Shown here: positions 889 through 49,526 of the stretch, in pieces
Layout: each line of letters starts with the position of its first letter
Position numbering within the stretch: the stretch's first letter is position 1
DNA from: Candidatus Goldiibacteriota bacterium HGW-Goldbacteria-1
GTDB lineage: Bacteria; Oederibacteriota; PGYV01
Assembly: GCA_002839855.1 (NCBI GenBank)
Contig: PGYV01000001.1
Span: forward strand, 229,256-293,255
Length of the DNA stretch: 64,000 nucleotides
Reading direction: 5' to 3'
The notes under the pieces: generated by a model
Seen by the model: only the letters and a program-made list of their open reading frames with translations
Databases searched by the model: none
Told to the model about the DNA's origin: nothing
Translations under genes and position numbers: made by a program

Positions 889-1001
889 CAAAACCACCCC
901 CTATTTATTATCATCATCGGCATTATTAAACCATAAACACCCATACTTGGACAACCCGCTACAGTTATGTTATTTAATAATGTTTCAGAATGCGGTTAAA
1001 A

Positions 1002-4000: not shown

Positions 4001-4889
4001 TAGAACTATCATTGATTGCATCTACTATCAACAACGAACGCATTTTGTTAGTTTTTGCATAGTCACTCATCTGTTTTAAAAAAGTATCTACTGTCATATT
4101 GTATCCATTTACTTTTACAATATTTTCTAGAATATCCCCTTCAACATTTAAATTTTCAGCTAATGTTATAACTGACATTGCTCCTTGTTCTACATTTCTT
4201 AAAGCTAAGTCACACAAGGTATGTGTTTTACCTATTCCAGCCTCTCCGTAAATTAAAACAAATGGTTTATTATGTATATCTGAGCCGTATTCGGTTAAAA
4301 AAATATAAAACATTTCTGTAACTTCCATTACATCTCTTAACGACGAAATAACCCCTTCATAATTATTATTTAAATCAGATTTATCGACTTTTTGAGGAGC
4401 AATTCTTTCTTCTTTTTTTCTCATACGAGAACTCATAATAATTTTATCAAGCCTCTCTTTCCCAATCTTCAGTTCTTCTAATATATCATTTAATTCAACG
4501 TCATGAAAAAGTCCAATATTGTTTCTAATAATAATTATAGTTTGTATTATTGATTTTAGATTCTTTTGACTTAAACACAAGGCGTCTTTTTCTTGGTCTG
4601 AAAGTATCGAATTTTCGCTATCAAAAATATAAAGTTTTAACGTTTCTTTTGCTTTCTTTTCAATCACGTTTAAAGTTTCAATAAATTCTCCTTTTTGAAA
4701 CAAACTATCAAAAAGATTTTCAAATTTCGCAATATGCAAATTAGGAGACATTTTGTCTAAGGCAGGAGTATATCTTGGACCAGCTTGTTTTAATGCTGCA
4801 TTTATATTTTTCCGACAACTTTTCAAAGTAATTTTATTCAATTCTATTGCTCCAAAATTAACATATATTATTTTTAAGAAACACGGCAA
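1002..4889 (-). CDS. STAND/NACHT-like ATPase, AVAST (Avs2/Avs4)-like antiphage sensor; no recognisable N-terminal effector
   Basis: 1295 aa. Walker A GEAGIGKT, Walker B LLIVDAIND, and motifs recalled from Avs-type proteins (GPRYTP, LRDKATRSL, NDPYIVERM, ERYGKKYAWI). AT-rich (about 28% GC in a sampled line versus about 50% in the neighbouring lacI gene). True start uncertain. Confidence 0.7.
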   Translation of the reverse strand: MPCFLKIIYVNFGAIELNKITLKSCRKNINAALKQAGPRYTPALDKMSPNLHIAKFENLFDSLFQKGEFIETLNVIEKKAKETLKLYIFDSENSILSDQEKDALCLSQKNLKSIIQTIIIIRNNIGLFHDVELNDILEELKIGKERLDKIIMSSRMRKKEERIAPQKVDKSDLNNNYEGVISSLRDVMEVTEMFYIFLTEYGSDIHNKPFVLIYGEAGIGKTHTLCDLALRNVEQGAMSVITLAENLNVEGDILENIVKVNGYNMTVDTFLKQMSDYAKTNKMRSLLIVDAINDSSIQEWEKQLKNLIQKMSLYKGIGLVLSCRTPYEKLLLTKVNGTLIAPIKHFGFRKIEFDAQQAFFKWKKVPAPEVPLLEDEYSNPLFLKLFTESLSFLHEKKHKSKELNSICSGQKSMTFILEQFYERVGGSFVSAFSSKRDFCWLVAKEVADVMSAKQRDYINPSEFNDLKMLTPMTTSEKDIFIKKCCSEGMFIKTCIYEGDNSWVEVIKFPYQKVSDHLIARSILKMELTEKNITEKKNALKQGFLGKIFCESNYGEYINLAEAIMLEFPIRDENKNEIFDLLDWKKISYMYCESFIRGLAWRPINFITKRTSKYLNLFLKNQQLRFKALDSIITLAVKNHRFNEKLYKWLFSMDLIDRDLFWTEYLRNEYESSAIQKLITWIEINHNKVSKRYLSLYIDVLTWVLSSTNRSLRDKATRSLVYLGIRNPEALLKKTINSLNINDPYIVERMFSASYGTLMRLVHSKKGRKKIFKVNKLIPKIYRQMFCKSSEFATTNILLRDSALGIIELTSKVCGKNKQIVYSRLIKPFKGGSCRKWGKAKDRDENKYRGGDCPLGMDFKNYTLGRLSPTRRNYDNSNNDYKLILQNIWWRIYNLGYSLEKFSKVDQEIATDSWRTDENVKIERYGKKYAWISFFELYGYRKDMGVIKDDYGPERLSDCGVDPSFPEFPREPDFMKWSYLGDNISSIEKWLNQKSVPKLNDLLVPNSIKNFGHEWVLLGGLIVQESKKDKRYIHIYTKGAFISKETAKDLKEFGNSKMQFELGGGDVPSDTYTYAGEIPWHKYYRKTNTDYLELILKERRMLIERIPPSKDANVENEELSNFLKENNMTIADMFAMESRLKKIKGKYYEVKIEKDIRSIPFRYAYKNFEWEYYHSILNQGTHPYVPDKQLAKKLKLYINPVDYSFYNSNGDVVIFPLKKEKDFNNQEDFLFIRKDKLDAYLKSSKMEFIWIIQGERKCVEYNENNERIRSNRDYKQFDKIITYESIKNVRKKAAHI

Positions 4890-4954
4890 GATACTCTAAG
4901 TGTCTGATCAAAATATCTCACAAACTGAGTGTTTTACCATATTCACCAAATCCC

Positions 4955-5971
4955 TTACGCGGATTCTCTTTTTACAAGCTCCGGTTCAAATACAAGATTC
5001 TTGGGGGTGGTAAGTTTGCCCTGCATGGCTTCAAGGGTTATCACAAACGCCTCGTTTCCCATTCTCTCCACAGGGTGCCTTACAGTAGTCAGCGACGGCG
5101 TAAACGCTGACGCTACGGGTATGTCGTCATACCCTATAACCGCAATGTCTTCCGGTACGCGAAGCCCCGCTTCTTTTACCGCGTTTATCGCGCCAATTGC
5201 CGTGCTGTCGCCCGCGCCGCAGAATATCGCGTCAATGTCTTTATGCGACTTTAAAAGGTTCTGCGTTATCGCGCGTCCTTCATTTATATAATTGTTATTT
5301 ACCTCTGCCATAATCTCATCGCGGACTGAAATGCCGCGGCCTACAAGCGCCTTTTTATAACCTTCTTCCCTTTCTATTATAGAAGGCCATGTCTCGCCGC
5401 CTGTTTTTGCCATTCCAATGTACGCTATATTGCGCCTTCCTTTATTTATAAGGTAATCAGCCGCCGTAAAAGCGCCTTTTTCATTGTCGCATTTAACGCT
5501 ATGCGCGCCATCCATACACCCGTCTATTAAAATCAGCGGCACCCCTGCTTTTTTTAACTTTTCCATATGCCCCTGTTCCGGTTTTATGCCAAGCATAATT
5601 ATAGCGTCTGCTTTTCTGTTTAAAATTATGGAATCAATTATCTGATCTTTAAACGCGCCTTCGCCCCTTGTGGAATACGGTATCAGGTCATAGTTCGCGG
5701 ACAACCCTGCTAAGTGCACGCCGTCTTCAATTTCGCGCAGTATATTCATTCCAAACACTGAAGTAAACCGCGTGCTGATAAACGCTATTGAATCCGCCTT
5801 TGCGCCCACTAACGCCCTGGCGGTTTTGTTCGGCCTGTACTGAAGTTCTTCTATTGCCTTTAAAACCCTTTCTTTTGTAGCGGGCGCCACTTTATCCACG
5901 CCATTGACCACAAAAGATACCGTGTTGTATGAAACACCCGCGATTTTCGCGACGTCTTTTATAGTTGCCAT
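4955..5971 (-). CDS. LacI-family transcriptional regulator
   Basis: N-terminal TIKDVAKIAGVSYNTVS HTH; periplasmic-binding-like core with VPEDIAVIGYDD and PSLTTV. Confidence 0.95.
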   Translation of the reverse strand: MATIKDVAKIAGVSYNTVSFVVNGVDKVAPATKERVLKAIEELQYRPNKTARALVGAKADSIAFISTRFTSVFGMNILREIEDGVHLAGLSANYDLIPYSTRGEGAFKDQIIDSIILNRKADAIIMLGIKPEQGHMEKLKKAGVPLILIDGCMDGAHSVKCDNEKGAFTAADYLINKGRRNIAYIGMAKTGGETWPSIIEREEGYKKALVGRGISVRDEIMAEVNNNYINEGRAITQNLLKSHKDIDAIFCGAGDSTAIGAINAVKEAGLRVPEDIAVIGYDDIPVASAFTPSLTTVRHPVERMGNEAFVITLEAMQGKLTTPKNLVFEPELVKRESA

Positions 5972-8256: not shown

Positions 8257-9845
8257 TCTATCCCGCGCCTTTTAAGTTCTTCAATTTCCGCCTGTGTTTT
8301 TCTTAAATCTCTCACAGACTTGACGTCATCCGGGTTTATCGCCAGGACTTTCTTCCACATTTCAACAGCTCCCTTTAAATCGCCCTCTGTGTAGCTGTTT
8401 ACAGCCAGATAATACATTCTGTCCGCCGCCTCTTTCTGTTCGCGCGTCAGCCGAACTTTGCCGCTGCCGGATTCCATATCTTTTTTCGCTTTTGCGATTA
8501 AAGACCTAAGCGCTTTATTCCCCGGCCTGCGCTTTAAGGCCGCTTCCCACTGTTTTATTGCCTCATCATACTGTTTTTTCTCGTATAATTCAATGCCCGC
8601 GGAAATATAAGCGTCCGTATCGCCGCTGTAATCCGTGCCTTCGCCGCTTTTTATCTTTTCTTTAAGTTTTTCTTCAAGAATCTTTTTCATTTTCAGCGAC
8701 GGTTCATAATCTTTTTTCCATTCCAGCGACTTTTCCGCCTCTGTAAGGGCGTCTTCAAATTCATTTCTAAGGTAATATGCGTAAGCGCGGCGGTAATACG
8801 CTTCCGCCTCTTCTTTTAATTTTATCTTAAGCCTTTCTTCCACTATCCTGCGCACTTCAGCGTAAATGCTCCTGCGCCTGTGCGCTTTCTGATCTTCCAG
8901 TGTCATGCCAAACGCGTATGAAAGGGTGTACCTGTCCATCCTTCCAAAACTGCCGTTTGATACAAACGCGTAATCAAATTTAATGTCATATAAATACAGC
9001 CCCGCGCCAAAAGTAAATTCCCCGTCTGTATAGCCCGCCCTTGCGCCCGTAATTCCCGCCCATTTTATCTCTATGCCAACCCTGTCTTTAAAACCTTCCT
9101 TTTCACCGGCAGAAATATCATAAGCGGCCTTAAATTCAAAATCCGCGTATTTGTGTTTTGCCATAACCCCAAGGGTGTATGTGCGCCCAAGCGTTTCGGT
9201 GACCGACTGCATTGAAAAAGCAGGCGTTATAAGGTTGCGGGCGATAAGCCCGGCGCGCAGAAAAGAAAAAGGTTCGTACAGCACGCCTATATCCGCGCCG
9301 AATCCGGCGTAATTAAACCGCGCCATATTGGAGTAATAAATGTCAAAATTCGCGCCGGCAGAAAAGCCGTCGGTTATTTTGCGCGCGTATGATAAGGCCG
9401 CTTTGTACTGGCCGTTTTTAAAATCAGAAGTTTGGTTTCCGTCCGTATCATAACCTTCCATACCGTCAGCGGAAAACATAAACAGCGCCGCGCCAATGGT
9501 TCCAAAATTAAGCAGCGGCTGCCCGTAAGAAACAGACCCGTAAGACACGGCTTCATATAAGGGGTAATATAACAGCGCTATTTCCTGTTTTTTAACAAGC
9601 ACAAGCCCCGCGGGGTTGTAATGAATTGCGGACAAATCATCTGCCACAGCCGTAAAAGCGCCTGCCATGCCGTCCGGCCTGGAACCGGCGCCGGCCATGA
9701 AAACATTTTCACTGCCGTAATCGCCGGGCGCCCCCTGTAAGGGAAAAAAACAAAACAACGCAAGCACTGTCAGCGCCGTTAATTTAATTTTTAGTATGCC
9801 TGTTTTAACCGCGGTCTTTTTCACAAAAACCTCATCACCCGTCAC
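8253..9845 (-). CDS. PorV/PorQ-like outer-membrane beta-barrel fused to C-terminal TPR repeats
   Basis: Signal peptide; GAGSRPDGMAGAFTAVADDLSAIHYNPAGL N-terminal motif; alternating beta-strands; TPR-like YDEAIKQWEAAL and AVEMWKKVLAINPDD. Confidence 0.7.
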   Translation of the reverse strand: MTGDEVFVKKTAVKTGILKIKLTALTVLALFCFFPLQGAPGDYGSENVFMAGAGSRPDGMAGAFTAVADDLSAIHYNPAGLVLVKKQEIALLYYPLYEAVSYGSVSYGQPLLNFGTIGAALFMFSADGMEGYDTDGNQTSDFKNGQYKAALSYARKITDGFSAGANFDIYYSNMARFNYAGFGADIGVLYEPFSFLRAGLIARNLITPAFSMQSVTETLGRTYTLGVMAKHKYADFEFKAAYDISAGEKEGFKDRVGIEIKWAGITGARAGYTDGEFTFGAGLYLYDIKFDYAFVSNGSFGRMDRYTLSYAFGMTLEDQKAHRRRSIYAEVRRIVEERLKIKLKEEAEAYYRRAYAYYLRNEFEDALTEAEKSLEWKKDYEPSLKMKKILEEKLKEKIKSGEGTDYSGDTDAYISAGIELYEKKQYDEAIKQWEAALKRRPGNKALRSLIAKAKKDMESGSGKVRLTREQKEAADRMYYLAVNSYTEGDLKGAVEMWKKVLAINPDDVKSVRDLRKTQAEIEELKRRGIE

Positions 9846-9861
9846 AGCCTGTTTTTTATTT

Positions 9862-11727
9862 TTACCTTAATACGGCCATTTTCTTAACAAGTTTTGCTGT
9901 TACTCCTGTTGATTTATCCTTAACTTCCAGCACGCATAAATAAACGCCGGACAATACTTCAATTTTATTATCATTCGTACCGTCCCATTCATCTTCAGAA
10001 TGGCGCCCCGCGGATTTTACGGTTTTATCCAGGACAGTCTTTACGTGTTTTCCCGTGACGGTAAAAATTTTTATGCTTACTTCCGAATCATTTTTTAAGT
10101 GATAACTGATACTTGCAGGCGACTGTTTTGGATCCACAGGATTGGGAAAAATATGAAACGATTCCTTAAGCGCGGGCGGAACCGGCGTGGCTGTCGCCGT
10201 GGGGCTGGGGCAGAACCCAAGCATAATATCCCCCAGATTCGCCGAACTTTCCCAGTTATTTTCATCCCCGTTCCATACAAGCTGTCCCACGCGCTCCGTG
10301 GTGCCGTTGTTAAAATCAATCTGCACGTCAAACTGATAAAAACTTCCGGTTACAGGGACAACGCCCAGCGTTGACCACGGTATCAACACTTCCATTATAT
10401 ATCCCGCAGAACCGGCTTTAAGAGTGCTTTTGTATTGAAGCCCGCCCGGCGGCAGAGCGACAGTGGCGTTTAAGCAGAACTGCAGGCAGTCGTAACTTAT
10501 CATAAAATGAAAATCGCCCACAGAGCCGGGATAAGGCTGGGTGCCGCGGTCATTGGCCATATCAAGGTATATTTCCACCGCGGAATCATTGTAATTGGCG
10601 CACGCCACCTGCGTGGCGTTAAGGTAGGAATCGTTTACGTCAACACCCACATAAAGGTTATCATTATCCCAAAGGGTTTTAAAACTTCCGGAAATATTAT
10701 TCGGGTTTGTACCAAGGCACAGTTCAGATACCTGATATTCCTGCGCGGACGCCCACGAACTTTCATTCATTAATCCGTCAATGGTTATGCCCCGCGCGCA
10801 TCCGGCGGTTGCCGTCAAAGAAGCAGACATTGTTATATAATAATTTTGATCCGCCTGGCTTCCGCAATCATCGGTATATACAGCGGCAAACGTATTAAGC
10901 CCCGGCGTTAAAGGTATTGCTGATAATTCGCGCGATAATGAAGTGAATCCTGACGGCCCGGTCCAGCTCCATGTTCCGCCCGTTAAAGGCTGCGGGCCAA
11001 GGTTTACCACAGAACCCTGATTTACGGTAACGGTGTCTGTCTGCTGCCAGGTTCCGCCGTTTACCTGAAGATATGGAATGATTTGCGGTGTCGCGCACGG
11101 CGTCCTCGTGCAGGTGGGCGTGGGCGGCATGGGGTTTATCTGCACCGCGCAGACCTGCGCATTGTCAATTACGGCAGGCCCGAACTGAATTGATATCTGC
11201 CCTGCCGCCGGAGATATATTATCAAACGTTTTGCTTACCGCCCTGAAAGCGGAACCCGCTTCATTATAAATATCAAAATCGTCAAGCACCCGCGTGCTGT
11301 TTATAAATACGTCAAATATCCTGTCACCTGCGGCTTCCCAGTATAATTCAGCGAATTTAAGCGTAACCTGATAACTGCCCGGCGGCACATTGAATGTGTA
11401 TGTGAAGGGGTTCCCGTATCTTTCAAACTGGTAAAGCGGGCTGTCAGCGGTATTTGCAACCGTAACCGTAACACTGTGCCCATACCCGCCGCTGTAATTT
11501 GTATCCGCCGCCCATGTGTTGCCCCAGCTGTCAGGATACGCGGCGCCCCCCGCGTTTACCCGCCACACGGATGAAACAGCAATATTATATGTAGGGGTGA
11601 TAGTGGCGGTGGCCGTGATGGTAAGTGTTGCTGTTGCGGCATTAGCAGCGCATGCAATTATTAAAGTATATAGGAGTACATTCAGGCTTTTGATTAGAAT
11701 TACCGGAGCACTTGCCGATTTTTTCAT
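9862..11727 (-). CDS. Secreted carbohydrate-binding protein: malectin + Ig-like + CBM9/DOMON-like + FlgD/T9SS-type C-terminal sorting domain
   Basis: WRVNAGG...LYQFERYG...LKFAELYW (malectin), ITIDG...LWDNDNLYV...DSAVEIYLD (CBM9-like), FPNP...VSIKIFTVTGKHV...WDGTND...SGVYL (sorting domain), and Thr-rich linkers. Confidence 0.75.
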   Translation of the reverse strand: MKKSASAPVILIKSLNVLLYTLIIACAANAATATLTITATATITPTYNIAVSSVWRVNAGGAAYPDSWGNTWAADTNYSGGYGHSVTVTVANTADSPLYQFERYGNPFTYTFNVPPGSYQVTLKFAELYWEAAGDRIFDVFINSTRVLDDFDIYNEAGSAFRAVSKTFDNISPAAGQISIQFGPAVIDNAQVCAVQINPMPPTPTCTRTPCATPQIIPYLQVNGGTWQQTDTVTVNQGSVVNLGPQPLTGGTWSWTGPSGFTSLSRELSAIPLTPGLNTFAAVYTDDCGSQADQNYYITMSASLTATAGCARGITIDGLMNESSWASAQEYQVSELCLGTNPNNISGSFKTLWDNDNLYVGVDVNDSYLNATQVACANYNDSAVEIYLDMANDRGTQPYPGSVGDFHFMISYDCLQFCLNATVALPPGGLQYKSTLKAGSAGYIMEVLIPWSTLGVVPVTGSFYQFDVQIDFNNGTTERVGQLVWNGDENNWESSANLGDIMLGFCPSPTATATPVPPALKESFHIFPNPVDPKQSPASISYHLKNDSEVSIKIFTVTGKHVKTVLDKTVKSAGRHSEDEWDGTNDNKIEVLSGVYLCVLEVKDKSTGVTAKLVKKMAVLR

Positions 11728-39177: not shown

Positions 39178-41145
39178 TTATATATTCTTTAACCCGCTTA
39201 ACCTTCTTTTTTCCTGCACGTCGTACCTTTTTTCTGCGGCTTTGATTATAAGCCCCAGCATCTGCGAATATGACACATCGTCCATCTTTGACATCTTTGC
39301 TAAGTGGCCGTCCCAGCACCAGCCCGGGTTGGGGTTTACTTCAAGCAGTTTAGGGTTGCCTTTGGAATCCAGCCGCCAGTCAAGGCGCGCGTAATCGCGG
39401 CATTCAAGCCGCTCAAACAGCTTCACGCACCACTCCTGAATATTTTTTTCTGTTTCAGCCGGCAGTTTTGCCGGAATTGTCTTAATGTATTTCCAGTAAG
39501 GGGACGTGGGGTCCCACTTGGCCTCGTACCCGCATATCTTTGGCAGGTCAGGCGGAAGGTCGGAATAGTCCTCTTCGGTAATGGGCATAATGCGGTAGGA
39601 TTCCGGCGGATTGCCGATAATTCCCACTGTGATATCGCTGCCTATTAAGAACTCTTCAACAAGTATGGGTTTTTCATATCCGGTTTTTTCCCGGACATCA
39701 GAAATAGCGCGGTCAAGCTGTTCTAAATTATGCACCACGCTTGTCCTTGTGATGCCAAAACTTGAATCGCCAAAATTGGGTTTTACTATCAGGGGAAAAC
39801 TGAAATTAACCGGAAGTTCGTATGTGATGTCTTCCGGTTTTATAAAGAAAGCTTTGGGGACAGGTATGCCCATTTCCGCGGCTATTCCGCGCACAAGCGA
39901 TTTGTCGTAACAGTAAGCAAGGCACTGCGGCCCGCCGCCCGTATATTTAATATTAAGCATTTCAAAAAACGCCGGCACGTGAAGTTCTTTTCTGGGGTCA
40001 TTGTCATACCCTTCATCGCACAGATTAAGTACAAGGGCGTTATCCTGTGAAACTTTTTTTAAGTCATCAAGAAGATTGGCGTGGTTATCCATAAAAGAAA
40101 ACCTGTACTGCTTTAACCCTGACAGCGCGTCCTTTAACCTGTCTATGGTCTGAAAATCGTCATCATCAAAAACTTCCGAAGGTTTTACACTGTCCGGTTT
40201 CTTAGGGTCGCCCATAACCACAACAACGTCCCTGACCTTGGTATCCTTTGCCTGTTTTTCCGGCGCGCGTTCTTTTTCCACAACAGCGGTCACAATAACG
40301 CGCCTTTCCATCATGCCAAGGTCCTGATTCCGTTTTGATTCCGTATTCATAGCCCCATGAAAATTAATAGCAGAAAGCCCGGCTTTTTTCATTATGAATG
40401 ATATGCTGTCCGCGTTATAAAGCCGCTCCGCGTAAAACTGGTCCACCACCACGCCCTTTTTTGTGTCTGTCACAACCTCGCGTGATATTAAGCGTTCCCC
40501 ATCCGCTGAAAGCGACCGCTCCCTGCAGACAAAGTGTTTCTTGTCTATCCATTCCCAAGACCGCGCGCTGAAGTTCTTTTTTACATAATCCCCGTCCGTT
40601 ACATCTATAAGCACCCGTCCGCCCGGTTTTAAAACCCTTGCGACCTCTTTTAAGACCATTACATCGTCATTTAAAGTTTCAAAATACCCAAAGCTGTTGC
40701 CCAAAAGCATTAACACGTCAAAAGTGTCATTGGAATAAGGTATTTTTCTGGCATCGCCTTCCTTAAATTTAATCGCAAGGTTTTTACCCTTTGATACAGA
40801 TTTTGCCCGCGAAATAAGGTAGTGCGACCTGTCCATTCCCTGCACGTTTTTAAATCCGCGCGAAGCAAGTTCTATTGTGTGGCGCCCCTGCCCGCAGCAA
40901 AGGTCAAGGATACATTCGTCTTTTTTAAGCTTCACAGCGCCGGAAAAAAAGTCTATTTCCTGCTTTGTAATCTGATTATCTTCCACCACATCGCCGTCTG
41001 TCATTATGTAATACGAATTGAAAATGTTCCTCCACCATTCCGGATGGACGTGCTGTTCAAGGTTCTTTACCGGGCCTTTTGTTACTACCCTGTTCTTACT
41101 GCCGTTCTTCCCGTTGATTTTTTCAACAGGCTGCTGTACTTGCAT
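39178..41145 (-). CDS. Class I SAM methyltransferase fused to a D-Ala-D-Ala-ligase-like ATP-grasp domain
   Basis: ILDLCCGQGRH and LLGNSFGYF (MTase); LIVKPNFGDSSFGI, LVEEFL, YARLDWRL and LEVNPNPG (ATP-grasp). Confidence 0.85.
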   Translation of the reverse strand: MQVQQPVEKINGKNGSKNRVVTKGPVKNLEQHVHPEWWRNIFNSYYIMTDGDVVEDNQITKQEIDFFSGAVKLKKDECILDLCCGQGRHTIELASRGFKNVQGMDRSHYLISRAKSVSKGKNLAIKFKEGDARKIPYSNDTFDVLMLLGNSFGYFETLNDDVMVLKEVARVLKPGGRVLIDVTDGDYVKKNFSARSWEWIDKKHFVCRERSLSADGERLISREVVTDTKKGVVVDQFYAERLYNADSISFIMKKAGLSAINFHGAMNTESKRNQDLGMMERRVIVTAVVEKERAPEKQAKDTKVRDVVVVMGDPKKPDSVKPSEVFDDDDFQTIDRLKDALSGLKQYRFSFMDNHANLLDDLKKVSQDNALVLNLCDEGYDNDPRKELHVPAFFEMLNIKYTGGGPQCLAYCYDKSLVRGIAAEMGIPVPKAFFIKPEDITYELPVNFSFPLIVKPNFGDSSFGITRTSVVHNLEQLDRAISDVREKTGYEKPILVEEFLIGSDITVGIIGNPPESYRIMPITEEDYSDLPPDLPKICGYEAKWDPTSPYWKYIKTIPAKLPAETEKNIQEWCVKLFERLECRDYARLDWRLDSKGNPKLLEVNPNPGWCWDGHLAKMSKMDDVSYSQMLGLIIKAAEKRYDVQEKRRLSGLKNI

Positions 41146-41520
41146 AAATCTCCTTTTGGATTATTAGGCATAGCTATAGGTATAAATATAGATAGGCTAC
41201 GCCCGTTTAGGTAAGTGATTGTTTCAAAAAGAAAGGTTGAAGTTTTCCCCGGCTATGGTTCGGGCTGGTTATAAGTTTTTCCCGGTTAATAAATCCCGAC
41301 CATACTATTCGGCTATACTTTTTTCATCTCCAAATTTTTAAGGCATAAACGCCCTGACAAACTGAATTTTAGAACAAATAACGGTTTTGTCAAGGGGGAA
41401 TAATGAGAATAAAAACTATATATGAGGTCTGAAATTTTTATTTACTTTTACTTAGTATCAACTCTCAACTCAAGGTCCGTCCCCTATTACTTATATTAGA
41501 AAGAACTTCCCAGATGTACG

Positions 41521-43110
41521 TTAAGACATAATTTGTTTTGTTACTGGTATTGTAGACCAAACGCCATTAATTAAAACTTGATGGGTCGGCGCAGGGTTCG
41601 TCCAATAGTAATTGAACAATTTAATTATATCCTCTGACTCTGGACTATTTATGTTAATAATTGTAGTTGCACGCTTCCCTAATCCATTAATTGACGTACC
41701 AACTTGCCAAACATTACTATCGTCAACAATTATAAATCTATCATGTATTGGATTATATTGTTTATGTGACAAAGGATGTTGATAGAATATTTTTGCAACT
41801 TCTATTTGTAAATTTGACGACCTCGCAATTACTAAATCATTAGCAAAATCATTATTTACATAAAAAGTTAAAATCATAACCTTTGTGGATGAAGCAATAT
41901 TACTTAAAATATTCCAATCATCAGAACAATTCCCAAAATAAGGGTCAATTATTGAAACTTTTGTATTTGCTTTATCTACAATTGATTGAATTTCCATTAT
42001 GGCTGTCAGTTGGTTACCAGCTTCATATAAAACTTTCTTTTTTGTTAATCGAAGTAAATCTGCTTTCTTTTTTCGCAAAATGCTATTTTTATCTAACTTA
42101 TCACCAACCGAAAAAGTTTTTCGAACTTTTCGACCACCACCATTAATGTCCATTGTATAATGTAGTTCTTCAACATAAGGTTGTTCAGTTGTAAAATCAC
42201 ATATTTTCATGTCGTTTGAAATAAGCATAAAAAATGTTTTATCAACATCATCTGGCAACGGCTGATAAAACATGATTACTTCGTTTTCACTTCCGGTTGG
42301 ATATTTAACATTATCTAATTTATAAATGTTCCAAAGCAAGGTCTCATCAGACCTAGTAAGTTTATAAATAATTGATAATTTATTAATATCCGACTTATTC
42401 TTCGTGGCAATTCCAACTTCTACACGTGTGCCATTATGTTCACTTGGGGTTGTTCCTTTTTCCTTTTTATCACTTAAAAACCAAGCATCAAAATTTGGAA
42501 AATATATGCCAATTGAACCTTTGAGTTCATTAAATTTATCAGCACCTAAAAATCCAATTAAAGAAATTATAGGACTACTTACTTCAATTCCGTTGATTAT
42601 TGCAGTCTCAACTGGTTTTAAAGGCATATAATTCGTTTCATTTGACCACAAAGCAAAAACAGTTGAACTTCTTGCTAAATTACAATTACCAGAACTAAAA
42701 ATACTGTTAAAATGTGAACCAATAACATATTCTTCTTTATGATCAAAATCAATATCATAACTTATAATATTACCTTCAATATCTAAACGCTTTGTTGTTT
42801 CAACTTTTTTCAACAGTTTATAAAATTCTTCAACCGAAAAATGTTTTCGCATTAATAACAAATCATCTCTTAAACAAGTAAATTCTATAATCTTTTTTAC
42901 ATCATCATAATTCAAAATAGGGACAATGATTTGTGTTTTTGAGTACTCATGCCATTCAGGTTCGCCAATTGTAGCGTAAATATCATCAGAAAAAGTAAAC
43001 GAAGTGTAATAGTTTACAAATCCAACTTCGGCTTTTTGGGCTATGCATTTCAGAACAACACCTTTATAATTATTATTTTGACAAATGCTTACAATTTCAT
43101 CCATCATCAT
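41521..43110 (-). CDS. Hypothetical protein with C-terminal PLD-like domain (VPA1262-like)
   Basis: IIDPYFG, IHDRFIIVDD and VGTSINGLG resemble PLD/HKD-variant nuclease motifs; AT-rich; ATGA overlap with the MTase. Confidence 0.55.
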   Translation of the reverse strand: MMMDEIVSICQNNNYKGVVLKCIAQKAEVGFVNYYTSFTFSDDIYATIGEPEWHEYSKTQIIVPILNYDDVKKIIEFTCLRDDLLLMRKHFSVEEFYKLLKKVETTKRLDIEGNIISYDIDFDHKEEYVIGSHFNSIFSSGNCNLARSSTVFALWSNETNYMPLKPVETAIINGIEVSSPIISLIGFLGADKFNELKGSIGIYFPNFDAWFLSDKKEKGTTPSEHNGTRVEVGIATKNKSDINKLSIIYKLTRSDETLLWNIYKLDNVKYPTGSENEVIMFYQPLPDDVDKTFFMLISNDMKICDFTTEQPYVEELHYTMDINGGGRKVRKTFSVGDKLDKNSILRKKKADLLRLTKKKVLYEAGNQLTAIMEIQSIVDKANTKVSIIDPYFGNCSDDWNILSNIASSTKVMILTFYVNNDFANDLVIARSSNLQIEVAKIFYQHPLSHKQYNPIHDRFIIVDDSNVWQVGTSINGLGKRATTIININSPESEDIIKLFNYYWTNPAPTHQVLINGVWSTIPVTKQIMS

Positions 43111-43964
43111 ACAATATCCCGTATAAAATTACTTTTAGGTTTTATTATGTTATCTGAAAAAAACATTATTTCATTTCCAGTTTTCTTTTCACCCGAACTA
43201 TAGTGTAGCTTGTATTTAATACTTTTATAATTGCTATAAATACGCCTTATCTCTTTTACATCATCATAGCTTACTATCCACTTTTGCTCACCCAATCCAA
43301 ATATTTGTTCTGCTATTTGCTTATGGTCTTCTGGTTTATAATAATTCATATAAAGTGAATGTCCTTGAACAAAATATGGTGGATCCAAATACAAAATAGT
43401 CTTCATATCTTTGGATTTTTTAAGTTTTTTTATTAATGTAATCGCATCGCAATTAGATATCTCTATTCGACTTTTATATCTTGCAATTTTCTCTATCCGA
43501 CTTATTAACTCCTTCTTATTAAATCTCGCATCTATTTTCCATTTCCCTTTTTGGTCCGTTCCACCTATGACGCCACCTTTTATAATACCAGACCTATTAG
43601 TCCTATTTAAATAGAATGCTGTAAAACCAAGATTAAGTAATGTATACTCAGAAGGCCTTTTTATTCTTTTATGCATTTTTTTCCATGTTTCAACATTAAC
43701 CTTTGAATCATTTATGAGTTTACAAAGTCTTTCTGTATCGTATAAGACACTATGCCAAAAAGAGTAGATCATATTGTCAAAATCATTTATTACAATCTTC
43801 TTAACATATTCCGAAAATAATAATGATAGGGCAACTGATGCACCGCCAGCATATGGTTCTATATAAGTCCCATCCAAACAACCATTATTGCTAACGATGG
43901 TCTTTATATAATCTGCTATTTTGCCTTTTCCACCTGGATATCTTAACGGGGACAAAAATCGCAT
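43107..43964 (-). CDS. Dam-like DNA adenine methyltransferase
   Basis: SPLRYPGGK, YIEPYAGGASV, LNRTNRSG, YLDPPY and WIVSYDD. Confidence 0.9.
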   Translation of the reverse strand: MRFLSPLRYPGGKGKIADYIKTIVSNNGCLDGTYIEPYAGGASVALSLLFSEYVKKIVINDFDNMIYSFWHSVLYDTERLCKLINDSKVNVETWKKMHKRIKRPSEYTLLNLGFTAFYLNRTNRSGIIKGGVIGGTDQKGKWKIDARFNKKELISRIEKIARYKSRIEISNCDAITLIKKLKKSKDMKTILYLDPPYFVQGHSLYMNYYKPEDHKQIAEQIFGLGEQKWIVSYDDVKEIRRIYSNYKSIKYKLHYSSGEKKTGNEIMFFSDNIIKPKSNFIRDIV

Positions 43965-43965
43965 A

Positions 43966-45300
43966 CTAACACCACAACTTTAAAATAAATGTACTTAAAT
44001 TTTCCCAGCTCTTAATTAGGTCTTTTTCTTTTGGCTGGAAATATCTATTATGAACATAGCCATTAAATGTATCAATTGATATCACGTCATCTTTATCACT
44101 TACCGCAACGCGCAAAGGTTTCAATTCTTTACTTGTCATTATATTTTCTTTACACATATATTCTATGACTTTTGTAATTTTCTCCCGTAATCTTAATTTA
44201 CTTTCTATTTCTTCTTTAGTTCCGATCTTTTTATTACTCATATATTCATCAACACTCATCTCTAAAAAAACCCTAAATAGAATTGCTATTGCGTTTGTAT
44301 ATTTATCGAATTTAAGCGCTTTCAACTCAATAAAAACATCGTTAATTCTTGGCTGTCTTATTTTTAAGACATATCCACTTGGAATTAACTTATTTCTACT
44401 TTTTGTAGACTTTAAAGATCTTGGTATTATCTTTCTTTTATCAACTAAGCTCTCTCCAAGTCCCCAAACCTCTTTGCTTGTTCTTTTAGTATCGGGCTTT
44501 TCTTCCGGAGTAAATTCGTTCAAATATCTTTGTCTATCTTCTTTTTTATATATTTTTTTAACTTTTACTCTTTTATCTATTAAATCTCTTACGATTTTAA
44601 CTAAACCTTTTACTACTTCTTTTTCTTCAACTTTCGATTCAAATAAACCATTTTCAATTTTAATGCCTAAAAATTCTTGAACTTTTTTATCTTCAACAAG
44701 TCTCTCTAAATTCGTTATAGGAATCTTATCAAAGTTTGCTTTTAAAGAATCGTCAACATCATCTCTTTTAGATAAAAAATTTATTATTTGCAAAGATACA
44801 TTCATTTTTCCTTTTGTATGTTCTTCAAATCTACGTTTTTGTTGCGCGTCCCACTCCACAACTCCTTTACCTTCATTTTCGCCAGTATGTTTTAAAACTA
44901 TCCATTTATTTGCATCTTTATATTCATCAAACACAACACAATCTAACGCTTTAATTGGTTTAGCGTTAAATACGGAACTTAATTTTATTATTTTCTTATA
45001 GAAACTTTCATTTTCATTCTTTATTATATCCGGATTAAGTAACAGTTTTAAGGCTACAACACGTCTATTGCCCTCCAGAACCACATATGTGTCTGAATCC
45101 ATTTCAGAAACCATAATGACATCAGATGGGTTAACCCCATTTTCAATTATATCTTTTGAAAGATTTATTATCTTTTTTTCTTGATCATTAACCATTGCAA
45201 TAATGGCATCCCTCTGATTTTCTTTCTGGTCAAATCTGGGATTACCAAGATTTATGGTTAACTTTTCCAATTTTATAGTTTCTCTTCTGTATTCGCCCAT
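43966..45300 (-). CDS. ParB/Srx-like N-terminal domain protein
   Basis: NPRF and VLEGNRRVVALK motifs; helical C-terminal domain with FRVFLE and FNGYVHN. Confidence 0.65.
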   Translation of the reverse strand: MGEYRRETIKLEKLTINLGNPRFDQKENQRDAIIAMVNDQEKKIINLSKDIIENGVNPSDVIMVSEMDSDTYVVLEGNRRVVALKLLLNPDIIKNENESFYKKIIKLSSVFNAKPIKALDCVVFDEYKDANKWIVLKHTGENEGKGVVEWDAQQKRRFEEHTKGKMNVSLQIINFLSKRDDVDDSLKANFDKIPITNLERLVEDKKVQEFLGIKIENGLFESKVEEKEVVKGLVKIVRDLIDKRVKVKKIYKKEDRQRYLNEFTPEEKPDTKRTSKEVWGLGESLVDKRKIIPRSLKSTKSRNKLIPSGYVLKIRQPRINDVFIELKALKFDKYTNAIAILFRVFLEMSVDEYMSNKKIGTKEEIESKLRLREKITKVIEYMCKENIMTSKELKPLRVAVSDKDDVISIDTFNGYVHNRYFQPKEKDLIKSWENLSTFILKLWC

Positions 45301-45301
45301 C

Positions 45302-48244
45302 TTACACCTCCCTATTTTTATTACTAATCACTTTTATCAATTCAACTTCTTCTTGTGAAATCTTATATAACCCATATATTTCTTCATCAATTTTTTGCAT
45401 CACTGAGTCTATTTCTTTGTCAATCTGGTTACCTTGTGCGCCTTTTCTGTTATTATTTAACTGAGAACTCAGTAACAATACTGTTTTAACTAAATCAGAT
45501 ATTCTTTTTTGTCTAACCACCTGAGCTTCATCCTTCTTATCTATAACAAAAATTGGTAGATTTTTTAGAAACATAGTTTTATATATAAAGAATTCATTAG
45601 CTTTTGGCACTGTTGTTTTTTTATAATACCATTCCATTAATCGAGAATTTAGAATACCCAAAATGTAATAAATATCTACGTCGGCTTTTTCCTCAAAGTA
45701 AAAGCCACAAACCGTATCCCCGTAGTAATAACCTTTATCATCAATCATAAATCGGTTTGATTCAGCCAGTTCTGGTACAATAATTTTAATATTGGTAAAA
45801 TTCTTTGTTTTTCTCTGATTCCAAAGTTCATACCATTTTTTTGATGATTTAGTAAAGTATTCTCTCTTGTTAATTTCGGTTTTATTAGATGTTAAAAATT
45901 TATAATAATTTGGAGCTTTAGCTTTTATTTCTTTTTCAGGTATCAAATCATTATTTACATCATATGGATAAAAAACGTATTCGTCTACAGCGTCCAAGTA
46001 GTATTTTCTTATATTTCTGCCTCTTATACATGGTTTTAAAAAAGTTTTTTCGATTTTATTGTTTTTGATTGTTTCCGAATCCAAAAGGTAGATGTCATTT
46101 AAACCGGTGACAATTCCTTCGGTAATATCATCTGTCACTTCAATCAATTTTTTAACATTATCTAATTTATTGATTTTTTCTATTATTTTAGTTTCCAAAG
46201 GATTTCTAAAAATCCATAAACCCTCACCTAATTCTTTTTGTGGATAATATTCAAGCTTCCCATTTAAACCTATTTTGTATTTGAGCATATTGTCTTTAGC
46301 TTTAGATTTTGAAAATATAAATATACCTGTATAATTTAACGCATCTTTAAATATTGATTCATGTTCAAAATCAATAATTTCTTCAACATTGACATTGTTT
46401 AATATATACTTCCTTAATTCAATACCGTGATTGCGTTTCATAAAACCCGTAGGACAAATATATGACATAAGACCATTTTTGTTAATAATTTTTATACCCT
46501 TTTCTATAAATAATACATATATATCAAATTTTCCTTTGGCACTTGAATATACGTCAGTGTAAAACTCCTTTTCCTTTTTGAAACCTTGAAATCCAATATA
46601 CGGAGGGTTGCCGATAACGCAGTCGAATCCACCTTCTGCCATAACCTCTTTATACTGTTCTTCCCAATTAAAAGGTTTTATCTTGTAATAATCATTCCCA
46701 AAGTACCTTGTAAGCAGTAGCGGGTCGCCGGATATAAGGGAGTTGCCGCATTTGATGTTCTGATTAAGCATAGGTAGTACGCCCTGGCCGCCGATAGGCA
46801 CAAATTCCCCTTCAAGCATCTTTAAAACAAGTGAAAGTTTGGTAACTTCCACTGCCTGCTCGTCTAAATCTACGCCAAATATATGCCTTTTTAATATCTC
46901 TGCCTTTTCCGCGATATTCAGCACATCGCCCTGCTGTTTTCCCTGTTCAAATAACTTATCCTGGCTTTGTTTATCTGCTTTTTCTGTGGACTGTTTTCTT
47001 TTTAAATCCCTGTACCAGTTAAGCATTTCTTCATACGCGCGAATAAGAAAGCTGCCCGAACCGCATGCAGGGTCAAGTATTCTTAATTTTTTTATGTCTT
47101 TTTCCTTTAATTCCGCAAGCTTTTTGCCTACTGTATTCTTTACTATATAATCCACAATATACTCAGGCGTGTAATAAACGCCGCCTGCTTTTCTTACGTC
47201 AGGCTTTTCTTCGTACTTTACCTGTTTGTCCGTGACCCTTATTGTGTAACCTAAAAACTGCTCGTAAATATTTCCAAGCACTTCTAACGGTATGGCGTCA
47301 AACTGATATGGGTTATAGGTATCTTCTATTATAGCGTTAAGCGTCTTAAATTCTATTTTAAGGTCTTTTTCCCAGTCCTGCGGGCGGAACAGTTCGCTGT
47401 CAAATATGCGGTTATAAAAGGCAAATTCTTTGTCCAGTATTACCTGCATTGTCCTTGTTCCAAGGCTGTCGCTTCTGTCTTCAAACAGCGCCCTTAAAGA
47501 ATGCCCTGCTACAAGCCCCCTGTCTTCACAGGAACGCATAAATACTATTCGGTCTAAAAGCTTCTGGTTAATTTCTTTTAAGTAGTCCGCGTCACGTTCC
47601 AAATCTCCGGAGTGAAATAAATCCGGGTTGTTTTTGTAGATGTCTTTGGCAAGGTGCTCACGCCAGACTTTAAGGTCATTAAGGACGGCTTTATCTACAG
47701 GAACCCTGTCTTTTGGTTTGGTTGAAAGAAGTTTGTTTAAATCCCCGTTTATAACCGATTCTTTGGAAAGCATCCAAAGGTCATCAAATTTATCTACATA
47801 CTGTTTCCAGTTAAGGTCAAGTTTTATGCCTTTTCTTATGTTTCTTATATCCGGCTTTACTGTTACGTCAAATAACTTAAAGCCTTCAAAATCGGTTAAA
47901 ACCACAAAAGGCACGTCTTTTCTGCTGTACCCGTATCCTATTGCCTGATTAATAAACTTTTTATCTTCAAGGTTTACGCTTACCTGCTTAGCCTCTACAA
48001 AAAATTCCACCCTGCCGTTGTAACGCACAGAATAGTCCACACGCTTGCGGGAAATTGCGTCTTCAAGACAGACTTCATTATGATTGTTTGTATCCCACCC
48101 AAGCAGCCTTAAAAGAGGTTCAATGAAGGTGCTTTTGGTGTTAGCCTCGTTAAGTTCCATGGCTTCGCCGGATTTCATTTCTTTTTCAAATAAATCCACA
48201 AGCTTTTGCAGCTCTTGTTTTGCCTGTTCTTTTGTCAGGTTCAT
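45302..48244 (-). CDS. Type IIG (Eco57I/TaqI-like) fused restriction endonuclease-N6-adenine methyltransferase
   Basis: N-terminal PD-(D/E)xK (VDY...FVEAK), GVYYTP, ILDPACGSGSFL, VIGNPPY, and a TaqI_C-like target recognition domain (YILGILNS.L). Confidence 0.9.
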   Translation of the reverse strand: MNLTKEQAKQELQKLVDLFEKEMKSGEAMELNEANTKSTFIEPLLRLLGWDTNNHNEVCLEDAISRKRVDYSVRYNGRVEFFVEAKQVSVNLEDKKFINQAIGYGYSRKDVPFVVLTDFEGFKLFDVTVKPDIRNIRKGIKLDLNWKQYVDKFDDLWMLSKESVINGDLNKLLSTKPKDRVPVDKAVLNDLKVWREHLAKDIYKNNPDLFHSGDLERDADYLKEINQKLLDRIVFMRSCEDRGLVAGHSLRALFEDRSDSLGTRTMQVILDKEFAFYNRIFDSELFRPQDWEKDLKIEFKTLNAIIEDTYNPYQFDAIPLEVLGNIYEQFLGYTIRVTDKQVKYEEKPDVRKAGGVYYTPEYIVDYIVKNTVGKKLAELKEKDIKKLRILDPACGSGSFLIRAYEEMLNWYRDLKRKQSTEKADKQSQDKLFEQGKQQGDVLNIAEKAEILKRHIFGVDLDEQAVEVTKLSLVLKMLEGEFVPIGGQGVLPMLNQNIKCGNSLISGDPLLLTRYFGNDYYKIKPFNWEEQYKEVMAEGGFDCVIGNPPYIGFQGFKKEKEFYTDVYSSAKGKFDIYVLFIEKGIKIINKNGLMSYICPTGFMKRNHGIELRKYILNNVNVEEIIDFEHESIFKDALNYTGIFIFSKSKAKDNMLKYKIGLNGKLEYYPQKELGEGLWIFRNPLETKIIEKINKLDNVKKLIEVTDDITEGIVTGLNDIYLLDSETIKNNKIEKTFLKPCIRGRNIRKYYLDAVDEYVFYPYDVNNDLIPEKEIKAKAPNYYKFLTSNKTEINKREYFTKSSKKWYELWNQRKTKNFTNIKIIVPELAESNRFMIDDKGYYYGDTVCGFYFEEKADVDIYYILGILNSRLMEWYYKKTTVPKANEFFIYKTMFLKNLPIFVIDKKDEAQVVRQKRISDLVKTVLLLSSQLNNNRKGAQGNQIDKEIDSVMQKIDEEIYGLYKISQEEVELIKVISNKNREV

Positions 48245-48349
48245 GTAGGCTTTGCGCCCTCCCGTTGCTATTTGGTAATTATGGCTATTATAAACCCTGC
48301 CGCGTTTCGCGTCAATTTAAACCACATGATAATAAGTATCAAAATATAC

Positions 48350-48394
48350 TTCTCAACTCAAACCCGGGGTCTGACCCCAAGTTTGAGTTGAGAA
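48350..48394. terminator. Long hairpin with a GGGGTCTGACCCC core after the 48396 stop
   Basis: TTCTCAACTCAAAC / GTTTGAGTTGAGAA 14-bp perfect arms enclosing CC-GGGGTCTGACCCC-AA. Confidence 0.55.
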
Positions 48395-48395
48395 A

Positions 48396-49526
48396 CTAAT
48401 ATTTCTCCAGCCAATTGATCAGCTGTATGTCATGCGGATTTAGTTCTATTGATTTTGTATATGCTTTTTTTGCTTCTGCTTTATTTTCCAGATAAAAATT
48501 ACAATTCCCGATTCTTTTATATACATCAGCCGTCTCCTGAATTAAAGCCGCCTGTTCAAAATACACCAATGCGATTTTATAACGTTTGCGTTCAAACTCT
48601 ATATCGCCTTTTTTCATAAATTCCGTGTATTCACTGTTATCAGAGGGCAGCGCGGGCAACTTTTCTGACTCCGAAATACTTTCGACATCAGAAGGTTCTA
48701 CACCTTCATTTGATAGATTAGAGATTGAATCATCAATATCCTGTGCTACGCCAGACTCTTTTGCTTTTGATTTTCCAAAAGAAAAAGATATTCCGCCATT
48801 AATATACAAACCCGAATAATCAACAGGCTGAACCATAAGGGAGCCGTCTTGAGGGTAATAATAACCGGTTCCCCGGAATATTCCCTCTAAATCACCTTTT
48901 GAATACCTGTACCCCGCTTTAAAATTTAATCCAAAGTTATCATTAAACCAGTAATCTGTGCCCGCTTCAAAACAGGTTCCAAAAAATAAACCAAACGGCG
49001 TAACAGACAGCGTTCCCATTTCATCGCCTGTTGCTGTATATGCATTGCCTTCCACCTGATTTGCAATTGAATACATAATACCAGCATCAAATCCAAGAAA
49101 GAAATTCACCTGTTCATTTTTCCATTTGTCCTGAAAATACTTTCTAAACCCAAGGCCAAAATAATCAGCGCTTAAATTACTTTTCATAGTCAGTAATTCA
49201 TTGGTGCTGTTAGGCCAAAACACTTTACTGTCATTATCCAGAACAATAATGTAATCATTTTTCAAATAAAACGCCCATAAACCGGACGGGCTGTCAAATA
49301 TATAAGCCCCGGCAATGCTTACCAAGCCGCCGGAAGTAATCAGCCTAAAATCCGAAGATGCATTTAAAGATTCAAAACTTTCGTTTTGTTCCTGAGCGTC
49401 TTTGTTGTATTCGGTCATCGCAAGCAGATTAATTCCGCCGTTAATTTCACCAATGCTTTTAATAACTTCTCCAAAAGACATATTTGATAAAAGCAATATT
49501 ACCATTAATAGAAAGATTTTTTTCAC
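48396..49526 (-). CDS. Exported outer-membrane beta-barrel-like protein with C-terminal TPR
   Basis: Signal peptide; FGLNFKAGYRY and LYINGGISFSF strands; TPR YKRIGNCNFYL...YTKSIELNP. Confidence 0.6.
   Translation of the reverse strand: MKKIFLLMVILLLSNMSFGEVIKSIGEINGGINLLAMTEYNKDAQEQNESFESLNASSDFRLITSGGLVSIAGAYIFDSPSGLWAFYLKNDYIIVLDNDSKVFWPNSTNELLTMKSNLSADYFGLGFRKYFQDKWKNEQVNFFLGFDAGIMYSIANQVEGNAYTATGDEMGTLSVTPFGLFFGTCFEAGTDYWFNDNFGLNFKAGYRYSKGDLEGIFRGTGYYYPQDGSLMVQPVDYSGLYINGGISFSFGKSKAKESGVAQDIDDSISNLSNEGVEPSDVESISESEKLPALPSDNSEYTEFMKKGDIEFERKRYKIALVYFEQAALIQETADVYKRIGNCNFYLENKAEAKKAYTKSIELNPHDIQLINWLEKY

Follow-up and report, generated by a model that had tools for sequence, protein, structure and literature searches.

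Four tightly spaced genes on the minus strand of a 64,000-nucleotide stretch from Candidatus Goldiibacteriota bacterium HGW-Goldbacteria-1 (contig PGYV01000001.1, positions 229,256 to 293,255; hereafter the window) raise the question of how many defence systems they encode. Gene 1 encodes a type IIG restriction-modification enzyme, and it is followed by genes for a ParB-like protein (gene 2), an adenine DNA methyltransferase (gene 3) and a protein with a C-terminal phospholipase D (PLD)-like domain (gene 4). The sequence-only reading of the window had proposed that genes 2 to 4 form a single three-component system, not recognised as any named one, which rides behind a self-sufficient restriction enzyme. 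We consider it likely that the locus holds three separate anti-phage modules, each able to function alone, which are stacked behind one promoter in a variable cargo position: the type IIG enzyme, genes 2 and 3 as the described system PD-lambda-5, and gene 4.

The identity of the central pair emerged from profile searches. The product of gene 2 (P0002) matches the PADLOC model PD-Lambda-5_A (PDLC03998) with an E-value of 1.2e-148, residues 6-443 aligning to positions 4-464 of the 466 in the profile, and it is also matched by 25 further PD-Lambda-5_A models. The product of gene 3 (P0003) matches PD-Lambda-5_B (PDLC04018, E-value 5.3e-121) over residues 2-279 of 285, as well as the Pfam family MethyltransfD12 (PF02086, E-value 2.8e-22), with the motifs YAGGAS at residue 38 and DPPY at residue 194. 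Its scores against Dam models fall well below the respective cut-offs (65.6 bits against 114.85 for TIGR00571 and 26 against 441 for PRK10904), and we assign it to the D12 class and not to the Dam orthologues. By these profile matches, genes 2 and 3, adjacent on one strand in the order A then B, are PD-lambda-5, and the PADLOC check thus supplied the name that had been missing for the ParB-like and methyltransferase pair. Their nearest relatives share about 45% identity for the A component and about 55% for the B component.

PD-lambda-5 was obtained from a functional selection in E. coli as a two-gene system that protected against most phages tested; its cloning required an E. coli host without mrr, and its authors regarded it as an 'RM+Abi' system in compacted, prophage-borne form (Vassallo 2022, PMC9519451). 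The need for a host lacking mrr indicates that the methyltransferase of the prototype is active in vivo, and it also argues for a methylation site other than GATC. We found no later mechanistic study of PD-lambda-5; the other papers listed as naming it appear, by title and abstract, to be surveys. The pair described here resembles the prototype in its A-then-B order, its near-zero spacing and the full-length match of both components. Whereas the prototype comes from an E. coli prophage, however, the present pair lies on the chromosome of a groundwater bacterium, where it is apparently transcribed together with a preceding type IIG gene and has a PLD-like gene after it.

An AlphaFold2 model of P0002, built with 30 relatives, reached a mean predicted local distance difference test score (pLDDT) of 84.7. 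The protein comprises an N-terminal ParB/Srx fold, a helical middle part and a conserved all-alpha C-terminal domain (residues ~317-443), with the motifs NPR at residue 20, EGNRR at 76, FRVFxExS at 342 and YVHN at 415. The top 27 Foldseek matches were ParB, Noc, KorB, PadC and the ParB-N domain of pNOB8, with sulfiredoxin next (probability up to 1.0, best E-value 1.5e-3), and database entries for its relatives are named 'ParB/Sulfiredoxin domain-containing'. Within the VLEGNRR motif, V74, E76 and G77-N-R-R80 are invariant among the 30 relatives and L75 is nearly so. In the C-terminal domain R343, E347, S349, Y415 and H417 are invariant, and N418 is nearly so. No arginine stands four to six residues ahead of H417, as the HEPN motif Rx4-6H would have it, and the invariant R343 is 74 residues away. 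Searches for a HEPN or Abi match in this domain found none in Pfam (16 C-terminal segments) or in a profile search of the PDB, and neither hhalign comparison with two HEPN/Abi_C proteins nor Foldseek gave a HEPN signal; the searches tied the domain to no other family either.

Whether the PLD-like gene belongs to this pair was addressed through co-occurrence. A profile of 30 A proteins yielded 286 confirmed PD-lambda-5 loci in species-representative genomes, the best 80 of which were examined, and all four proteins were compared by tblastn with these 80 loci, with 40 loci holding type IIG relatives and with 8 holding PLD relatives. Across the three sets no co-occurrence was found beyond that of A with B. 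The B gene directly follows the A gene in 77 of the 80 PD-lambda-5 loci, and two of the remaining three are cut by contig ends. A type IIG-like match occurred in one of the 80, where it was weak and 3 kilobases (kb) away. Gene 4 relatives were present in none of the 80, and a more sensitive comparison (phmmer --max) detected none among the 137 open reading frames (ORFs) that immediately neighbour the pairs. One of these neighbours, a 527-amino-acid (aa) protein at L071 in which HxK..D occurs at a comparable place, was considered as a gene 4 relative and proved to be a type I HsdM. The 137 neighbours are heterogeneous, type III methyltransferases being commonest (5) followed by OLD/Gabija-like ATPases (4), and no PLD family figures among the 25 neighbour families listed.

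The search in the opposite direction gave the same picture. Gene 4 was compared with 5.8 billion clusters by a word-indexed search and with 1.84 billion representative proteins by an exhaustive HMMER search, with agreeing results. Besides P0004, the product of gene 4, only two full-length relatives were found in these collections, at 35-36% identity, while the other 325 matches share the PLD domain alone. Neither full-length relative lies near PD-lambda-5 A or B, a type IIG gene or any methyltransferase, and PD-lambda-5 and type IIG genes were likewise not found near three more distant relatives of the domain, which carry the variant motif described below (HDR-PLD). The three-component hypothesis is refuted on its own terms, because the pair had already been described and the PLD-like gene is not conserved with it. 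What stands from that proposal is that the genes behind the type IIG gene are a separate unit or units.

At around 15 of the 77 PD-lambda-5 loci the pair is tightly coupled to an additional gene, placed behind B or ahead of A, and this gene varies from locus to locus: NurA-like, an AAA_15/Toprim ATPase, a Lit-like peptidase, a second ParB-like protein, HsdM or a type III Res.

Two further recurrences were seen at PD-lambda-5 loci. Five loci of Bacteroidota type (L029, L035, L042, L044 and L051, at ~9350-9990) share an unannotated ORF of about 210 aa before A, ending between 4 nucleotides (nt) past and 8 nt before the A start. The one member scanned (L029) had no Pfam or PADLOC match, and this ORF may be a clade-specific third component of PD-lambda-5. 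An AAA_15/OLD-Toprim-like ATPase of about 520 aa adjoins the pair at L027:5095-6660, L016:255-1808 and L072:8332-9906; at L027 there is a 4-nt overlap with the stop codon of the methyltransferase.

P0004 itself gave no Pfam match above threshold and no match at all in a PDB sequence search. Its residues 357-497 align to positions 171-298 of the 306 in the PADLOC model PDC-S05 (E-value 4e-15, 53.7 bits), and weak PADLOC matches to NsnC and DrmC also fall in the C-terminal part. Since only the C-terminal 128 of the 306 PDC-S05 positions align, we regard the domain as shared and do not count P0004 as a member. An assignment to the VPA1262 family (NCBIfam NF040700) was likewise rejected, with a score of 62.5 bits below the cut-off of 80 and a best stretch limited to residues 454-500. 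In an AlphaFold2 model from a five-sequence alignment, the PLD region has pLDDT values of 71-92 per 10-residue block, while residues 1-360 are unreliably modelled (pLDDT below 50 for most). The N-terminal ~350 residues had no match, and a viral structure library gave nothing informative for them.

Foldseek placed the C-terminal domain close to the nucleases NucT (6ehi, E-value 1.5e-6, target TM 0.67) and Nuc (1byr, target TM 0.68). Zucchini, PLD3/4 and bacterial PLDs came next, with 58 matches in all at an E-value of 1e-3 or better, and FAM83 and TrmB/TrmBL2 were also among the PLD-fold matches. The model supports a PLD fold for this domain, and profile and fold matches together uphold the four domain calls made at the outset (type IIG, ParB/Srx-like, D12 or 'Dam-like' methyltransferase, and PLD-like). 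The motifs found were DPYF at residue 389 and H456-D-R458-x4-D463-x7-G471-T-S-I-N475, which departs from the canonical HxK(x)4D(x)6G[ST]xN in that the lysine is replaced by arginine, the other positions being retained. This 'HDR' form is present in all five aligned relatives and in 126 of 147 domain relatives.

With the single-HKD nucleases Nuc and NucT, gene 4 thus has in common the predicted fold and the retained histidine, aspartate and GxSxN, but it differs in the arginine, in its large N-terminal fusion and in a sequence identity of only 15-18%. With PDC-S05 and the 'VPA1262 family' it shares a C-terminal PLD-like domain of about 150 residues bearing HDRF[IL]IxD...GxSxN, whereas its 350-residue N-terminus is unrelated to theirs and restricted to the three-member family. 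In support of a single-chain effector role for gene 4, a PDC-S05 representative is reported to have protected E. coli B as a single gene, by about 1000-fold against T7 and T5 (bioRxiv 10.1101/2024.09.26.614923). Gene 4 represents a new and rare family whose PLD domain is a known variant, one already present in catalogues of defence candidates. Its conserved HDR motif is common to the PDC-S05 and VPA1262 candidates, and it offers a cheap single-gene construct for asking whether the variant PLD is active as an anti-phage nuclease.

Two of the more distant HDR-PLD relatives showed an arrangement of their own. At L126:6001-9648 and L129:6001-10041, three genes succeed one another with slight overlaps: one for a longer HDR-PLD protein (518 and 534 aa), one for another, short HDR-PLD protein (195 and 210 aa) and one for a protein of unknown kind (506 or 600 aa). 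The three may form one module, in which the PLD active site would be heteromeric. The short HDR-PLD gene and the large gene were found neither in the window nor at the loci of the two close gene 4 relatives.

The remaining module is the type IIG enzyme. P0001, the product of gene 1, matches the PADLOC model REase_MTase_IIG (PDLC03604) with an E-value of 4.5e-172 over residues 7-968. Its Pfam matches comprise HSDR_N/MmeI_N at residues 19-144, N6_Mtase/Eco57I at 322-655 and TaqI_C at 738-898, with MmeI_Mtase in addition. The N-terminal part carries a nuclease motif of PD-(D/E)xK type (D70...E84-A-K86), and the motifs of a gamma-class N6-adenine methyltransferase are found further on (DPACGSGSF at 391 and NPPY at 546). 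Judged by these domains, gene 1 is a complete and intact type IIG restriction-modification enzyme of predicted activity. Nuclease, methyltransferase and specificity domains all lie within the one protein, in accordance with its having been called self-sufficient. Like other type IIG enzymes of the MmeI/Eco57I kind, it joins a PD-(D/E)xK nuclease, an NPPY methyltransferase and a TaqI_C-type specificity domain in a single polypeptide. The protein is unremarkable beside such enzymes, and what is notable is the break in GC content at NPPY and the hypervariable coupled gene downstream.

The locus had been described as AT-rich, and the GC content is indeed 0.24-0.33 across ~41500-46600, against 0.39-0.48 on both flanks. 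The low-GC block does not coincide with the operon, however: it starts inside gene 1, not at its start, and stays low to the end of gene 4. Gene 1 has a GC content of 0.39-0.43 before the breakpoint, and at ~46600 the value drops from 0.43 to 0.25 within 300 nt. Comparison with relatives of either half of gene 1 revealed a matching mosaic. Where the N-terminal half of a relative is 54-70% identical, its C-terminal half either shows an identity of 21-37% or gives no match, except at L086 and L099, where a C-terminal identity of 53-54% accompanies a close N-terminal half. Conversely, the best relatives of the C-terminal half (50-59%) are mostly just 36-40% identical in the N-terminal half. The mosaic identities and the GC break together point to recombination within the conserved methyltransferase core, which suggests that a single event, with its crossover in that core, may have brought in genes 2 to 4 along with the specificity half of gene 1.

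The genes behind related enzymes support a variable position. The 40 type IIG loci (L086-L125), which hold relatives of the N-terminal or of the C-terminal half of gene 1, contain genes 2, 3 and 4 in no case by tblastn. A downstream ORF could be read at 29 loci, and in 24 of these it is on the same strand at a distance of -28 to +77 nt. By BLAST, the 29 ORFs sort into 26 clusters that are unrelated to one another. Recognised occupants are an FRG-domain protein, SIR2 with HerA, and an AbiJ-like protein, while eight of the ten downstream ORFs scanned had no Pfam or PADLOC match. Genes 2 to 4 look like one filling of a hypervariable slot behind the type IIG gene, and this coupled position could be mined for new defence genes.

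Taken together, these results outline how three modules might act side by side. Gene 1 would methylate its own recognition site on host DNA and cut unmethylated incoming DNA, as in classical restriction. The D12-class adenine methyltransferase of gene 3 would mark host DNA, probably at a site other than GATC, while gene 2 would be the effector, with a ParB/Srx fold for binding nucleotides, a helical part for binding DNA and, at its C-terminus, a helical candidate nuclease; its target would be either phage DNA that lacks the mark or the infected cell itself. Gene 4 would be a stand-alone sensor-effector, whose N-terminal region would sense infection and whose Nuc/NucT-like PLD domain would degrade nucleic acid, presumably as a homodimer like Nuc. 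The enzymatic activities are predicted from family membership and intact motifs, and gene 4 probably works alone. Taken as a whole, the stack is arranged as is ordinary for a defence island, and genes 1 to 3 belong to known kinds. For annotation, this means that genes 2 and 3 are to be labelled PD-lambda-5 and gene 1 type IIG, and that the trio needs no new system name.

Several points weigh against a stack of independent modules. Their independence is read from co-occurrence and not from function, and the view that gene 4 stands alone elsewhere rests on two loci, one of them on contigs of ~3 kb. The ATGA overlap between genes 3 and 4 and the 1-nt gaps elsewhere are the pattern expected of the subunits of one system. 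With about a fifth of PD-lambda-5 loci carrying a coupled extra gene, the A-B core may sometimes recruit accessory effectors. Some PLD-fold proteins, such as FAM83 and TrmB, are non-catalytic, and with arginine in place of the motif lysine throughout the domain family, nuclease activity of gene 4 is not assured. Finally, the organism is known only from groundwater metagenome runs.

Some of these observations would also fit a role of gene 4 as a lineage-specific accessory effector of PD-lambda-5. Genes 2 to 4 would then be a three-gene variant system, in which the ParB-like protein and the PLD nuclease both use the 'self' mark set by gene 3 to spare host DNA. The start of gene 4 overlaps the methyltransferase stop, restriction nucleases with a PLD fold exist (BfiI, NgoFVII type), and the tightly coupled extra genes at other PD-lambda-5 loci mean that this type of methyltransferase pairs with differing effectors. 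We nevertheless consider such a role unlikely, given that gene 4 relatives are missing from all 80 PD-lambda-5 loci and PLD from the 25 families listed. Moreover, the two full-length relatives of gene 4 and the sampled distant HDR-PLD relatives have no adjacent methyltransferase of the gene 3 type, which indicates that the gene 4 protein in general needs no cognate methylation mark.

Two bolder ideas extend this line of thought, and we hold it improbable that they are right when taken jointly. Methyltransferases of the PD-lambda-5_B type could be a portable 'self-marking hub' that licenses interchangeable effectors, and the position directly behind this type IIG lineage could be a hypervariable docking slot. 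If the former were true, the hub would here serve the ParB-like protein and a translationally coupled HDR-PLD protein at once, and with gene 4 a methylation-gated system would for the first time have an effector of PLD type. If the latter were true, the slot's at least 26 unrelated and mostly unannotated occupants would form a reservoir of undescribed immune genes.

A closer link between PD-lambda-5 and restriction is suggested by its position at some other loci. At L070:995-8264 and L081:8001-15439, A and B are enclosed by type III mod and res, and the gaps measure 14-29 nt and -8 to +17 nt. The two loci share 47% identity in Mod, 72% in A, 80% in B and 64% in Res, and, being diverged, they indicate that the embedded four-gene arrangement is conserved and is not a single recent insertion. 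Elsewhere PD-lambda-5 abuts type I or type III methyltransferases. This recurrence inside or beside restriction operons may be a clue to how PD-lambda-5 works. It recalls PrrC, an abortive-infection gene embedded in type Ic hsd restriction loci: there, as apparently with genes 2 to 4 here, another immune module shares the transcript of a restriction-modification operon, inside it or after it. Unlike guards of the PrrC type, however, genes 2 to 4 gave no sign of monitoring the state of the restriction enzyme, and PD-lambda-5 functions in the absence of such an enzyme.

All four genes could on this model be one integrated, PrrC-like system, in which PD-lambda-5 and the PLD protein would watch over the type IIG enzyme and, as a back-up, set off abortive infection once a phage blocks or escapes restriction. 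The single promoter and near-zero intergenic spacing agree with this, as do the description of PD-lambda-5 as a compacted 'RM+Abi' by Vassallo et al., the two embeddings between mod and res together with the abutting type I and III methyltransferases, and the coupled downstream defence gene that is common among type IIG relatives. We regard it as quite unlikely all the same, since in E. coli PD-lambda-5 is protective with no restriction system at its side, restriction-modification genes do not adjoin the pair at most PD-lambda-5 loci, and the 26 unrelated downstream families fit a slot for insertion or recombination better than a link between guard and client.

That gene 4 is no defence effector at all, but a non-catalytic DNA-binding or regulatory protein of PLD fold or a decaying passenger gene, would account for the arginine in its HKD motif, the non-enzymes (FAM83, TrmB/TrmBL2) among its fold matches, the 350 N-terminal residues of low pLDDT without a recognisable fold and the extremely small family, but we find it highly improbable, as H456, D463, G471, S473 and the other motif positions do not vary over hundreds of diverged domain relatives, which implies selection on an active site, the three full-length members have stayed intact at 35-36% identity, which implies purifying selection, phage protection is reported for a member of PDC-S05, the family with which the domain is shared, and gene 4 is identical on other metagenome contigs, though these are probably of the same organism.

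The layout of the locus is summarised in Table 1. The four minus-strand ORFs, both 1-nt gaps and the ATGA overlap lie exactly where the sequence-only reading had placed them. The junctions read TAA-G-ATG between genes 1 and 2 (gap at 45301), TAG-T-ATG between genes 2 and 3 (gap at 43965) and gtATGAtg between genes 3 and 4 (overlap at 43107-43110). As the ORFs are long and their family matches strong, chance is of no concern for the domain calls. The promoter TTGACG-17-TATAAT that had been named is present and agrees with the consensus at 11 of 12 positions, the joint best of the region, and a GGGAGG Shine-Dalgarno sequence precedes the ATG of gene 1 at 48244. The scan found 37 promoter-like sites in the region against 33.8 expected from shuffled sequence, so the site is plausible and suggestive only. 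The four genes are probably co-transcribed from this one shared promoter.

Table 1 Features of the four-gene locus and its surroundings, in window coordinates
Feature	Position	Strand	Remark
Gene 1 (P0001), type IIG restriction-modification enzyme, 980 aa	45302-48244	minus	
Gene 2 (P0002), PD-Lambda-5_A, ParB-like, 444 aa	43966-45300	minus	
Gene 3 (P0003), PD-Lambda-5_B, D12-class N6-adenine DNA methyltransferase, 285 aa	43107-43964	minus	
Gene 4 (P0004), rare protein with C-terminal PLD-superfamily domain, 529 aa	41521-43110	minus	
PLD-like domain of gene 4, residues ~357-529	41524..42042	minus	
GC breakpoint within gene 1, residue ~549, just past NPPY	46590..46610		300-nt composition profile
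Promoter-like site TTGACG-17-TATAAT	48287..48315	minus	consensus match only
Hairpin of 20 base pairs with T-run, closes the upstream TPR gene and parts it from the operon	48350..48394	minus	terminator scan
Upstream TPR gene	48396-49526		
Spacer of 375 nt beyond gene 4	41146..41520	minus	marks the end of the low-GC block
Promoter-like site TTGACA-16-TAAAAT for the gene after the island	41393..41366		inside the 375-nt spacer

The stretch is present in four groundwater DNA metagenome runs and in no RNA runs. An identical four-gene locus was found on other metagenome contigs, which probably belong to the same organism and are therefore not independent support.

A tRNA or an integrase was looked for at the island borders: no tRNA occurs anywhere in the window, and the flanking genes encode the TPR protein and a methyltransferase-ligase fusion. 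The latter, located after the island at 39178-41145 on the minus strand, joins a class I S-adenosylmethionine methyltransferase to a D-Ala-D-Ala-ligase/ATP-grasp part in 655 aa and has a host-like GC content. At the left end of the window, positions 1000-5000 form a second low-GC block (0.29-0.31), which may be another acquired island.

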